A stretch of 64,000 nt of DNA from Escherichia phage AV112: sequence record OR352942.1; one strand, 5' to 3'. Shown piece after piece: positions 47,300-49,318 of the stretch (the first letter of the stretch is position 1; every line of letters begins with the position of its first letter). The notes under the pieces were generated by a model that saw nothing but the letters and a program-made list of their open reading frames with translations, was not told the origin of the DNA and did no database searches. A program made the position numbers and the translations under genes.

Positions 47300-47343
47300 G
47301 TTGCTTTTCCTAAGTTAATTAACTTATCTATTTATTATTATGC

Positions 47344-47371
47344 AAAAAAGCCCCAACCTTTCGGAAGGGGC
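47344..47371 (-). terminator. Rho-independent terminator closing the tRNA/stable-RNA transcription unit
   Basis: Plus strand reads aaaaaa-GCCCCAACC-tttc-GGAAGGGGC. Confidence 0.6.
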
Positions 47372-47423
47372 TATGCCTTGCGGCAACCTTGTCGGGGTTC
47401 CACCTGCTAAGGCAAGTGTTTGT

Positions 47424-47515
47424 ACGAAACGCCGGGATTCGAACCCGGTTATTAAGCAGTTGACGCTACTCAATATTTTTAAAAGGCCATATCTCGACCA
47501 TATCCGAACGTTCCG
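47424..47515 (-). ncRNA. tRNA-like element or small stable RNA (T4 rnaC/rnaD position)
   Basis: Minus strand has a canonical T-arm CCGGG-TTCGAAT-CCCGG and a 7-bp acceptor-like stem (CGGAACG pairing with CGTTTCG), but the ~60-nt body does not fold as D and anticodon arms. Confidence 0.3.
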
Positions 47516-47683
47516 TCAAAAACGCTACTCGGCTTACGGCAAAGATATTTCCTCGAATCGATAATTCTGTGCGCCGTTTCAGCTGTGATAGTAAAGAACC
47601 AGAACACAGTAAAACTGTGGGAGGAACTATACTCCAGGGAACATCAGTCCGACGACTTACCGGTAGCGACCCGGTTTCTTGTT

Positions 47684-47759
47684 TGGTCGAGACAGTAGGG
47701 GTCGAACCTACGACCTAGGACTTAGAAGGTCCTTGCTCTTCCTTCTGAGCTATGCCTCG
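47684..47759 (-). tRNA. tRNA-Arg (anticodon TCT)
   Basis: Manual cloverleaf: acceptor CGAGGCA/TGTCTCG, D-arm GCTC-AGAAGGAA-GAGC, anticodon loop CTTCTAA, T-arm GTAGG-TTCGACC-CCTAC, encoded CCA. Confidence 0.85.
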
Positions 47760-47763
47760 GATT

Positions 47764-47838
47764 TGGCGGACATGCATGGATTCGAACCATGGACCAATTG
47801 ATTAACAGTCAACTGCTCTACCACTGAGCTACACATCC
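47764..47838 (-). tRNA. tRNA-Asn (anticodon GTT)
   Basis: Manual cloverleaf: acceptor GGATGTG/CATGTCC, anticodon loop CTGTTAA, T-loop TTCGAAT, encoded CCA. Confidence 0.8.
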
Positions 47839-47842
47839 AAAT

Positions 47843-47929
47843 TGGTTGGGAGTGATGGAGTCGAACCACCTGAGTCGCAATGACAATGGATTTACAGTCC
47901 ACACCGCTACCTCTACGGGATAACTCCCC
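47843..47929 (-). tRNA. tRNA-Tyr (anticodon GTA), long variable arm
   Basis: Anticodon arm GTGGA-CTGTAAA-TCCAT, long variable arm, T-arm GGTGG-TTCGACT-CCATC, encoded CCA; the 5' acceptor boundary is uncertain by 1 nt (a 1:72 mismatch if the start is 47929). Confidence 0.6.
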
Positions 47930-47938
47930 AAATTAATT

Positions 47939-48013
47939 TGGTGGCCCTGGGTGGAATTGAACCACCATCTGGCGATTATGAGTCGCTTGCTTGAACCTTC
48001 CAGCTACAGGGCC
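47939..48013 (-). tRNA. tRNA with CAT anticodon (Ile-lysidine type as in T4, or Met)
   Basis: Acceptor GGCCCTG/CAGGGCC, anticodon loop CTCATAA, T-arm GGTGG-TTCAATT-CCACC, encoded CCA. Confidence 0.8.
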
Positions 48014-48014
48014 T

Positions 48015-48090
48015 TGGTGCTGATTGACGGAATTGAACCACCGACCTTCTCATTACAAGTGAGTTGCTCTACCTACTGAGCTAAATCAGC
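48015..48090 (-). tRNA. tRNA-Thr (anticodon TGT)
   Basis: Acceptor GCTGATT/AATCAGC, D-arm GCTC-AGTAGGTA-GAGC, anticodon loop CTTGTAA, encoded CCA. Confidence 0.85.
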
Positions 48091-48095
48091 AAAAC

Positions 48096-48185
48096 TGGCG
48101 GAGGCGATAGGATTTGAACCTATGAGTCGCCGGAGCGACTGCCGGTTTTCAAGACCGGTGCATTAAACCACTCTGCCACGCCTCC
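48096..48185 (-). tRNA. tRNA-Ser (anticodon TGA), type II
   Basis: Acceptor GGAGGCG/CGCCTCC, anticodon arm CCGGT-CTTGAAA-ACCGG, long variable arm, T-loop TTCAAAT, encoded CCA. Confidence 0.85.
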
Positions 48186-48187
48186 AG

Positions 48188-48261
48188 TCTCCATACAAGG
48201 ATTTGAACCTTGGACCTCCTGATCCCAAATCAGGCGCTCTACCAAACTGAGCTACACGGAG
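48188..48261 (-). tRNA. tRNA-Pro (anticodon TGG)
   Basis: Acceptor CTCCGTG/TATGGAG (C1:G72), anticodon loop TTTGGGA, T-loop TTCAAAT; CCA is not encoded. Confidence 0.8.
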
Positions 48262-48271
48262 TAAATTAAAT

Positions 48272-48345
<74 letters not shown>

Positions 48346-48350
48346 AAATT

Positions 48351-48437
48351 TGGTGCGAGAAGTGGGACTCGAACCCACAAGGAAATCATTCCGCAGCATT
48401 TTAAGTGCTGTGCCTTTACCAATTTGACCATTCTCGC
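48351..48437 (-). tRNA. tRNA-Leu (anticodon TAA), type II
   Basis: Acceptor GCGAGAA/TTCTCGC, anticodon arm CAGCA-CTTAAAA-TGCTG, long variable arm, T-arm GTGGG-TTCGAGT-CCCAC, encoded CCA. Confidence 0.85.
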
Positions 48438-48438
48438 G

Positions 48439-48511
48439 CTGGGAATAAAGGACTCGAACCTTTGCATCCTGGAATCAAAATCCAGTGCCTTACCAACTTG
48501 GCTAATTCCCA
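48439..48511 (-). tRNA. tRNA-Gln (anticodon TTG)
   Basis: Acceptor TGGGAAT/ATTCCCA (U1:A72, typical of Gln), anticodon loop TTTTGAT, T-loop TTCGAGT; CCA is not encoded; only 1 nt separates it from tRNA-Leu. Confidence 0.85.
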
Positions 48512-48608: not shown

Positions 48609-48902
48609 TTACCATTTATGATAATACATATTTACGATGCATTCAAGACCCAAAGGATTCTTGAAAATATCATATTCAAGAGGACCTTTTTCCGTTTCAA
48701 TAAAGAAATCAAAGTTAACTGTGTTAAATTTACGGTCTTCCTTTACTAATTTAACTTGAGAAGATGAACGGTCAATGTAAACCTTTTCAACTTCAAAACA
48801 TGTTAAAATGCCATAATCATCAATCAAGGCTTTAGCCGCATCTTGATCATATTTATATCCATTTTCAATGGATGATACTTTCGCATAAAGAATCATTATC
48901 AA
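48609..48902 (-). CDS. Hypothetical protein
   Basis: 97 aa ORF upstream of the tRNA cluster. Confidence 0.45.
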   Translation of the reverse strand: MIMILYAKVSSIENGYKYDQDAAKALIDDYGILTCFEVEKVYIDRSSSQVKLVKEDRKFNTVNFDFFIETEKGPLEYDIFKNPLGLECIVNMYYHKW

Positions 48903-49318
48903 CCTTCATCAACAATAGTATGCGTATTGGCATTTACAATTTGCCACCAATCAAAGCGATTAGAACCATACATCAGTTTGTTTTCATTTTCTTTGATAAT
49001 ATCACGGAGTTCATCTTCAGTGGCGGCTTTCGCGATTAAATCAGCATATCCACCACGAGGATAATAATTATCACCTGCAAAAAGTAAAAAGTTTGGTTTA
49101 ATGTTATTGAACTCTTCAAGAGTAATAACTTTTCCTGACGGTTGAACAATCTCTACATATTTATATCCCAATTTTTGAGCAGCATCTACTGCTTCAAGCA
49201 AAGTATCATGAGCCCATCCAATTTGACAACCTGGCTTTTCAGATGGATTAGCCTGATAATCCGCATACACTTTGTACATTCTATTCACCTTTAGAAATTT
49301 TATCCATAACGATAGCAA
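48899..49318 (-). CDS. Hypothetical protein
   Basis: 139 aa ORF. Confidence 0.45.
   Translation of the reverse strand: MLSLWIKFLKVNRMYKVYADYQANPSEKPGCQIGWAHDTLLEAVDAAQKLGYKYVEIVQPSGKVITLEEFNNIKPNFLLFAGDNYYPRGGYADLIAKAATEDELRDIIKENENKLMYGSNRFDWWQIVNANTHTIVDEG

Follow-up and report, generated by a model that had tools for sequence, protein, structure and literature searches.

Homologs of T4 rnaC and rnaD downstream of the tRNA genes of Escherichia phage AV112, and a predicted cloverleaf-like fold for rnaC

Results

The locus

We analysed a stretch of 64,000 nucleotides (nt) of Escherichia phage AV112 (OR352942.1), referred to below as the window and numbered from its first letter, and within it the minus-strand interval 47376-47683. 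An earlier note, made from the sequence alone, had placed there, between tRNA-Arg and a terminator, a tRNA-like element with a canonical T-arm, and had offered three identities for it: one of the small stable RNAs of T4 (rnaC or rnaD), a tRNA pseudogene, or a processing substrate. Judged by its sequence, the region 47340-47700 is the 3' end of the tRNA operon of a Tequatrovirus, that is, a T4-like phage. A megablast search with this region returned 766 phage records. Nearly all are from T4-like phages, with Escherichia, Shigella, Yersinia and Salmonella as hosts, and Escherichia phage AV113 matched best, at 100%. ARAGORN and Rfam identify ten tRNA genes on the minus strand of 47340-48511 (Gln, Leu, Gly, Pro, Ser, Thr, Met, Tyr, Asn and Arg). 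About 340 nt separate the 3' end of tRNA-Arg from the far end of a GC-rich terminator hairpin with a U6 tract, and the placement of the element between these two landmarks was confirmed by ARAGORN, Rfam, the sequence and its fold.

In the T4 reference genome (NC_000866) tRNA-Arg is followed by rnaD (annotated as "small, stable RNA; species 2 RNA", 119 nt), a 6-nt spacer, and rnaC ("species 1 RNA", 139 nt). The ends of both RNAs were transferred from this annotation to the window by pairwise alignment, which gives the following layout:

47684-47759, minus strand: tRNA-Arg (UCU), the last tRNA of the cluster, bounding the element upstream (ARAGORN; Rfam RF00005, 64.9 bits)
47568-47682, minus strand: rnaD homolog (species 2 RNA), by alignment to T4 rnaD
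47562-47567, minus strand: A/U-rich spacer GAAUUA between rnaD and rnaC, the 5' leader of rnaC, by alignment (AAAUUA in T4)
47423-47561, minus strand: rnaC homolog (species 1 RNA), 139 nt, tRNA-like, by alignment to T4 rnaC and by the covariance model R1 described below
47373-47422, minus strand: 3' trailer with small hairpins, by its fold; its sequence is conserved with T4
about 47344-47372, minus strand: intrinsic terminator of the operon, GCCCC-UU-CC-GAAA-GG-UU-GGGGC followed by U6, by sequence and fold

As in T4, rnaC is thus the last gene of the operon, preceded by tRNA-Arg and rnaD and followed by the trailer and terminator. The window rnaC aligns with T4 rnaC (NC_000866 70908-71046) over its full length, nt 1-139, with 137 of 139 positions identical; against the rnaC annotated in RB10, in Aplg8 and in RB3 (AJ884578, "rnaC: species I RNA") the identity is 100%. 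The two substitutions relative to T4 are both structure-neutral in the fold described below: one, at nt 66, lies in a bulge, and the other, at nt 105, turns the pair U94-A105 into U94-G105. Among 743 phage records rnaC is at least 99% identical in 490 and at least 95% identical in 680. It is practically certain from these alignments that the interval holds the rnaD and rnaC of the T4 family, the same genes as those for species 2 and species 1 RNA, and the first guess of the earlier note was right, base for base. The interval that it treated as one element does contain the tRNA-like RNA, rnaC, but it also spans a separate RNA gene, rnaD.

The locus itself is already known, and small stable RNAs from rnaC and rnaD have been known since the 1970s. 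In T4 both have been described by Northern blot as late-accumulating stable RNAs of unknown function (PMC9697503, PMC3014915), and reviews from 2010 to 2025 still call the function of species 1 and 2 RNA unknown (PMC9697503, PMC3014915, PMC12685909). Both are excised from the primary transcript that they share with the tRNAs, so the note's suggestion of a processing substrate is compatible with what has been published (PMC2330249).

A predicted four-way junction in rnaC

For comparison we used 34 distinct rnaC homologs drawn from the phage collection, IMG/VR and metagenome scans. They span at least seven genera (Tequatrovirus, Karamvirus, Winklervirus, Kanagawavirus, Moonvirus, Gelderlandvirus and Marfavirus) and a few unclassified relatives, and all homolog counts given for rnaC refer to this set. 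The conserved fold is predicted to be a four-way junction of P1, P2, P3 and a T-arm (P4), made up in the window as follows (nt positions are those of rnaC):

47554-47561, minus strand: 5' strand of P1, nt 1-8, UCGAUUCG (RNAfold, RNAalifold, covariation of 4:135)
47424-47431, minus strand: 3' strand of P1, nt 131-138, CGUUUCGU (RNAfold, RNAalifold, covariation of 4:135)
47484-47553, minus strand: P2, a long interrupted arm in the position of the D-arm, nt 9-78 (minimum-free-energy fold; covariation of its apical part)
47514-47519, minus strand: L2, the apical loop of P2, UUGACG, nt 43-48 (complementary to L3 in 34 of 34 homologs)
47450-47475, minus strand: P3, a hairpin with a 10-bp (base-pair) stem in the position of the anticodon arm, nt 87-112 (changes on both sides in eight of ten pairs)
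47460-47465, minus strand: L3, the loop of P3, CGUCAA, nt 97-102 (proposed loop-loop partner of L2)
47432-47448, minus strand: P4, the T-arm CCGGG-UUCGAAU-CCCGG, nt 114-130 (sequence; the third stem pair covaries)

The structure named here has 91.6% of its cells paired, and 22 of its pairs show double changes. Shuffled controls gave 80%, none of 500 equalling the named structure, and slid controls were at most 49% paired. RNAalifold, run on the 34 homologs, independently returned P1, P2, P3 and the T-arm, with compensatory changes in 20 of 35 predicted pairs. Folded by itself, the window rnaC has a minimum free energy of -50.2 kcal/mol (z = -4.55) with its termini paired (nt 2-4 with 135-137 and nt 7-8 with 131-132).

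The T-arm is exactly as the earlier note had read it. Its third stem pair is U-A in 20 homologs, G-C in 11, A-U in 2 and U-G in 1, so that 100% of cells are paired. P2 occurs in two sequence types, A and B, that share one architecture, and it is joined to P3 by an A-rich linker (J2/3) of 8-10 nt. The note had described the roughly 60 nt upstream of the T-arm as AT-rich and as forming neither a D-arm nor an anticodon arm. AT-rich they are (35% GC, against 45% for the whole RNA), but the body forms two covarying arms, neither of them canonical.

P1 consists of five Watson-Crick pairs, a tandem U-U and an end position that is U-U or A-U. The pairs C2-G137, G3-C136, C7-G132 and G8-C131 are invariant, as is the tandem mismatch U5-U134, U6-U133, and position 1:138 is U-U in 27 homologs and A-U in 7. 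The remaining pair, 4:135, is A-U in 9 homologs, G-C in 25 and broken in none. Nucleotide 135 is the sole variable base of the 3' strand, U in Tequatrovirus and C elsewhere, and it tracks nt 4. P1 adjoins the 5-bp T-stem without a linker, giving a minihelix of 13 positions (8/5). The base that follows, A139 (47423), is in the position of a discriminator, and the genomic sequence continues with CAA (47420-47422). In Marfavirus the discriminator base is C, so that the sequence there reads GU-CCA-A.

The acceptor-like stem is likely formed by the termini of rnaC

The earlier note had proposed a different acceptor-like stem, a 7-bp pairing of 47509-47515 (CGGAACG) with 47425-47431 (CGTTTCG). These segments can indeed pair, with six Watson-Crick pairs and one G-U, but neither the homologs nor the folding energy allow this helix to be the conserved acceptor stem. 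In the alignment it corresponds to nt 47-53 with 131-137, for which 81% of cells are paired with zero compensatory changes. Pairs within it are broken in 23, 14 and 8 of the 34 homologs, the worst being 49:135 (G-U in 9, G-C in 2, mismatched in 23). The helix is absent from the RNAalifold consensus, and it is impossible in type-B bodies (KMB17, PEi20, Melville, Marfa). Its 5' strand, 47509-47515, is instead the 3' side of the apical hairpin of P2, where five of five pairs covary and 100% of cells are paired. When the internal helix was enforced on the window sequence the energy rose from -50.2 to -36.9 kcal/mol, a penalty of 13.3 kcal/mol. When the 113 nt upstream were shuffled, a 7-mer able to pair with CGUUUCG turned up in 19% of cases. 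The internal pairing is a chance-level alternative that the comparative data reject.

The termini of rnaC, nt 1-8 and 131-138, are the likely acceptor-like stem, and with P1 the RNA would take on a cloverleaf-like fold. The annotated mature T4 rnaC begins at nt 1 of P1 and ends 1 nt beyond its 3' strand, as would be expected if its 5' end matured like that of a tRNA, at the foot of the acceptor stem.

Covariance-model searches

The earlier note had left room for covariance models to see no structured RNA here. We built a covariance model, R1, from 18 rnaC homologs of non-Tequatrovirus phages that share the structure, and searched the 64-kb window with it. R1 matched 47420-47561 over its full model length with 135.9 bits (E=2.7e-28), and its sole other match in the window, at 21.9 bits, lies in the T-arm region of tRNA-Tyr/Asn.

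The tRNA and transfer-messenger RNA (tmRNA) models that the note had also suggested do not accept the element. ARAGORN finds no tRNA or tmRNA in 47376-47683, and in an Rfam search of the region, at the gathering threshold and at E up to 10, only tRNAs pass. Rfam has no family for rnaC or for rnaD. RF00005 gives no match to rnaC even at E up to 10; of the features of a canonical tRNA it has only the T-arm. The best Rfam match, to tRNA-Sec (RF01852), relies on the internal pairing that is not conserved and, with 16.6 bits (E=1.5), stays well below the gathering score of 47. The tmRNA_permuted model matches 17 nt of the T-arm and nothing else, with 10.1 bits, which does not make rnaC a tmRNA. The sub-threshold matches to tRNA-Sec, isrK and tmRNA_permuted all stem from the T-arm, and the 8/5 geometry of the minihelix probably explains why tRNA-Sec, though insignificant, scores highest.

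Complementary loops of P2 and P3

In all 34 homologs L2 (UUGACG) is the exact complement of L3 (CGUCAA). In six Marfavirus sequences both loops change jointly, to UUGGCG and CGCCAA, replacing an A-U pair with G-C. The calculated duplex energies are -5.5 kcal/mol for UUGACG/CGUCAA and -7.6 kcal/mol for UUGGCG/CGCCAA, and by our arithmetic the chance of a perfect match between two given 6-nt loops is about 1/4000 per register. In the Karamvirus phages KMB17 and KaAlpha the regions of L2 and L3 are complementary over about 15 nt (AAAGUAGUUGACGCU with AGCGUCAACUACUUU), and RNAfold of KMB17-type sequences joins the two regions in a single long helix in place of two hairpins. On this pattern we moderately favour a kissing-loop pseudoknot between L2 and L3, or possibly an interface for dimerisation.

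Fully paired 6-nt kissing loops are known from HIV-1 TAR/TAR* and from RNA I/RNA II of ColE1. There, as in rnaC, every base of one loop is complementary to the other loop. In rnaC, unlike in those systems, both loops lie in one RNA, so that the proposed contact may be intra- or intermolecular; it is supported by conservation and one compensatory change.

Distribution and context of rnaC

In Karamvirus, Gelderlandvirus and the unclassified Citrobacter phage Ursula, rnaC follows tRNA-Trp. tRNA-Gly lies directly 3' of it in Karamvirus and Gelderlandvirus, and in Ursula an open reading frame (ORF) intervenes. In Winklervirus rnaC lies between tRNA-Phe and tRNA-Trp. The spacers around rnaC in these arrays are 4-11 nt long, like those between tRNA genes. 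Elsewhere the array is missing: ARAGORN finds zero tRNAs within 1.5 kb in PEi20, which retains rnaC; Kosakonia 305 and Marfavirus also keep it without a tRNA array, at most one tRNA-Met lying upstream in Marfavirus; and the Moonvirus NM4.3 record has no tRNA annotated near rnaC. rnaC thus persists in phages that have no tRNA cluster next to it, and its retention does not depend on the tRNA genes.

When IMG/VR, JGI metagenomes and GTDB genomes were scanned with loosened patterns, every genuine homolog came from a T4-like phage of Enterobacterales. The GC-rich bacterial and metagenome sequences that matched the patterns were set aside as chance matches, R1 having found nothing in them. There was no rnaC match in E. 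coli genomes, and therefore a host or prophage origin is not indicated.

rnaD

The rnaD of the window and that of T4 (NC_000866 71053-71171) both lie directly after tRNA-Arg and are nearly identical over the 5' 50 nt or so and the 3' 25 nt or so. They differ in the central 45 nt or so, where the window carries the T2/BW-1 allele, one of at least three, and at the 3' end, which is CACC-A in T4 and CACA-G here. Two hairpins can be named:

47658-47674, minus strand: 5' hairpin of rnaD, ACCGG-GUCGCUA-CCGGU (minimum-free-energy and centroid folds; covariation)
47605-47619, minus strand: internal hairpin of rnaD, CACAG-UUUUA-CUGUG, holding the site of the BW-1 substitution discussed below

The closing pair of the 5' hairpin is A-U in 8, G-C in 4 and G-U in 2 of 14 rnaD homologs, and in the consensus of these 14 a long-range helix of GUCGUCG with CGGCG-CAC closes the central domain. 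The single-sequence fold is no better than that of shuffles (z = -0.85). We considered rnaD as a second tRNA-like RNA and rejected the idea: it has no T-arm, and its fold is a 5' hairpin plus a long closed domain.

One convergent single-nucleotide polymorphism (SNP; 164264, T-C) arose in all BW-1 lines adapted to the host ECOR34 (PMC12685909). In the deposited BW-1 genome (OR125554) this position maps to the internal rnaD hairpin, at 47607 of the window. The deposited BW-1 sequence reads CUAUG there, with a C-A mismatch, and the window and other carriers of the allele read CUGUG. If the substitution ran from T to C, it restored a Watson-Crick pair and was a reversion to the common sequence, and it would then be genetic evidence that the structure of rnaD matters on some hosts. 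The authors did not present the SNP as a restoration of rnaD pairing (PMC12685909).

In many Tequatroviruses (nine loci noted) it is the stop codon of an ORF, not tRNA-Arg, that directly precedes rnaD (for example, ...GAATATTAA followed at once by GAAACCGGG), and therefore an inserted gene separates tRNA-Arg from rnaD there.

The surrounding operon and its annotation

The tRNA set of the window includes Met, Tyr and Asn but no segB, and so belongs to the T2L/RB1/RB3 type rather than the T4 type (PMC2330249). Transcription ends after the species I gene (PMC2330249). The fold of the trailer and terminator together has z = -3.06. A simple terminator scanner missed 47344-47372 because the stem carries an internal U-U loop; the same scanner labels the internal rnaD hairpin 47605-47619 and the downstream UUCUGGUUCUUU as terminator-like. 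The T4 counterpart of the trailer reportedly carries the RNase III processing site. Among the tRNAs, tRNA-Tyr (47843-47929, minus strand) scores 30.9 bits in Rfam, barely above the gathering score of 29, and the other nine score 59-73 bits.

Upstream of the tRNA cluster and on the same strand, two boxes match the T4 late-promoter consensus TATAAATA (48850-48857 and 49158-49165, minus strand). They would suit rnaC and rnaD accumulating late, as has been reported; in the window as a whole the motif is not above chance (9 observed, 8.35 expected). A MotA-type middle promoter just 5' of tRNA-Gln is not claimed, its spacing to the 5' end of the tRNA being unsuitable.

Existing records label rnaC in other ways. 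In Enterobacter phage vB_Ecl_id4496 (PQ824230 172234-172328; nt 746-840 of the locus) the 3' two-thirds of rnaC are annotated as a 95-nt "tRNA-Met (CAT)", almost certainly a mis-call. Coding sequences (CDSs) for "hypothetical proteins" cross rnaC or rnaD on either strand in Marfa (nt 516-653 of the locus), EI (518-655) and many Tequatrovirus records; the ribosome-binding site (RBS) of some of them is an invariant GAGGA. These CDSs are probably spurious, because the pattern of substitutions follows base pairing. A covariance model such as R1 would correct both kinds of mislabelling.

Discussion

The data presented here are best explained by the end of a T4-type tRNA operon that carries rnaD and rnaC, the latter with a cloverleaf-like fold, an explanation that we consider highly probable. 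As a gene, the window rnaC is that of T4: position, strand, length and flanks (rnaD upstream, trailer and terminator downstream) agree, and the two differ by the structure-neutral substitutions noted above and by the T2/RB3-type tRNA set around the former.

Several points weigh against this explanation. P1 is a weak helix, three of its eight positions being non-Watson-Crick in most homologs. Just one of its pairs covaries, and the two states of that pair divide Tequatrovirus from all other homologs in a single split. The covariation of the two loops likewise depends on one clade, the six Marfavirus sequences; since no wider homologs were found, there is one independent covariation event each for P1 and the loop-loop helix. 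P2a (AGG/CCU) is invariant in the alignment and so gives no covariation, and central P2 aligns poorly between the two body types. In 33 of the 34 homologs the discriminator-like base is followed by CAA, not CCA, regardless of whether a trailer, tRNA-Gly or a CDS comes next. Winklervirus-like phages (five loci, including LC53) replace the T-loop UUCGAAU with UGCAUCC or UGCAUGC, leaving the T-stem and the remaining rnaC intact, and therefore recognition of a canonical T-loop is not essential everywhere. As a separate observation, the T-loop UGCAUGC contains the self-complementary GCAUGC.

Relation to tRNA and tmRNA

With canonical tRNA and tRNA-Sec, rnaC shares a canonical T-arm, an acceptor-like stem formed by the ends and abutting the T-stem, a predicted four-way junction, one unpaired nucleotide beyond the stem, and a slot in tRNA arrays; the 8/5 geometry is that of bacterial tRNA-Sec. 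It differs in its length of 139 nt, in having a 70-nt arm in place of the D-arm, in the tandem U-U and in the lack of an encoded CCA. Where a canonical tRNA has its anticodon arm, rnaC has a stem of 10 bp capped by a 6-nt loop without the signature of an anticodon loop. The tRNA-like domain of tmRNA also joins an end-closed acceptor stem to a T-arm and replaces the anticodon region with a large, structured, pseudoknotted insertion. rnaC differs from it in having no tag reading frame, no G-U identity pair for alanine, no CCA and no similarity in sequence or model, and it is much smaller.

Alternative explanations

A cis-acting module for processing or stability, in which the fold recruits RNase P or shields the 3' end of the transcript and the RNA itself is a by-product, is improbable but survives best. 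In Tequatrovirus rnaC is the last structured unit before the terminator and part of the tRNA precursor (PMC2330249), and fifty years of T4 genetics have yielded no function for it (PMC3014915, PMC12685909). However, Karamvirus, Winklervirus and Gelderlandvirus have it within the array rather than at its end, PEi20, Kosakonia 305 and Marfavirus have little or no array beside it, and a mere handle for RNase P would not need invariant loops with compensatory change.

If the internal 7-bp pairing were the true acceptor stem, a tRNA-like unit of about 93 nt (47424-47516) would sit on a longer transcript. The pairing does exist in Tequatrovirus sequences, where the tRNA-Sec model uses it, and in Enterobacter phage id4496 it is fully Watson-Crick, ARAGORN agreeing with the record in calling the 95-nt tRNA-Met. 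The comparative, energetic and chance estimates given above all oppose it, from the uncompensated breaks to the 5' strand lying in a covarying hairpin, and the mature RNA annotated in T4 would extend 45 nt beyond the 5' end of such a unit. We regard it as very unlikely.

It is about equally improbable that rnaC enters the ribosome as a tmRNA-like or aminoacylatable RNA. The minihelix of acceptor stem and T-arm, the large insertion and, weakly, the 8/5 geometry would fit such an RNA. Against it stand the ARAGORN search, which found nothing, and the Rfam tmRNA match confined to the T-arm, as well as the lack of a conserved reading frame: in T4 a stop follows after three codons, and the type A and type B bodies differ by changes that preserve structure and are non-synonymous. 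No CCA is encoded, and no G3-U70 or other identity element was recognised. A Shine-Dalgarno-like GAGGA with a mini-ORF, considered in this connection, was dropped as not conserved.

The remaining two explanations can be set aside with little hesitation. A decaying tRNA pseudogene without a function of its own, which the earlier note had entertained, would sit in a tRNA array, have a T-arm and fail all tRNA models, as rnaC does, but would not be conserved at 95% or more in 680 of 743 records, show invariant loops and compensatory changes in 22 base pairs across at least seven genera, persist where tRNAs are absent, or, as in T4, yield a stable RNA (PMC9697503). A small protein-coding gene might be suggested by ORFs of 24-74 amino acids overlapping the region, by the hypothetical proteins listed in several Tequatrovirus records and by a 45-amino-acid CDS with an RBS annotated across rnaC in Marfa, EI and F48, but the T4 reference has no CDS here, the ORFs are not conserved between genera, the substitutions obey base pairing and not codon logic, and the strand of the CDS varies by record.

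Biogenesis and possible function

The cloverleaf-like reading of rnaC leads to a proposal for how the RNA is made. Because rnaC is a member of tRNA arrays, set off by spacers like those of tRNAs, and the 5' end annotated for it is at the base of P1, release in the manner of a tRNA is most likely, with RNase P making the 5' end at that point. A minihelix of acceptor stem and T-arm is what RNase P and other tRNA enzymes recognise, and rnaC is a candidate RNase P substrate by its predicted geometry, an acceptor-like stem stacked on a T-arm with the annotated T4 5' end at nt 1 of P1. The 3' end would arise from an endonuclease cut in the trailer or, in other genera, from RNase P acting on the next tRNA, followed by exonuclease trimming. 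Work in the Abelson, McClain and Apirion laboratories reportedly assigned these steps to RNase P and RNase III. The compact fold may then confer stability on the RNA.

As to function, the minihelix might engage a tRNA-binding factor of the host, with the conserved, loop-locked body giving specificity. rnaC could, for example, draw off a host enzyme or defence toxin directed at tRNA, although such a decoy-type role is at present a tentative suggestion and more likely wrong than right. The invariant loops, the tandem U-U and the retention without tRNA arrays fit a trans-acting mimic better than a passive processing handle. In its full form, with rnaC as a dedicated trans-acting tRNA mimic that neutralises or redirects a host factor acting on tRNA, and rnaD as a host-specific accessory RNA of the same module, the model is speculative and rather doubtful. 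Candidate host factors would be a tRNA-directed defence toxin or an enzyme that processes or modifies tRNA.

The rnaC and rnaD genes are a textbook T-even pair, and their presence in AV112 carries little weight as a discovery; their products are among the oldest orphan RNAs of molecular biology. What is added here is an anatomy, supported by covariation and testable, for a 50-year-old orphan RNA that has no Rfam family: a predicted acceptor stem closed by the termini and containing a tandem U-U, two complementary 6-nt loops, and retention without adjacent tRNA arrays. Were the mimic model to hold, T4-like phages of Enterobacterales would keep rnaC after the loss of their tRNA arrays for the sake of its binding to a host factor.

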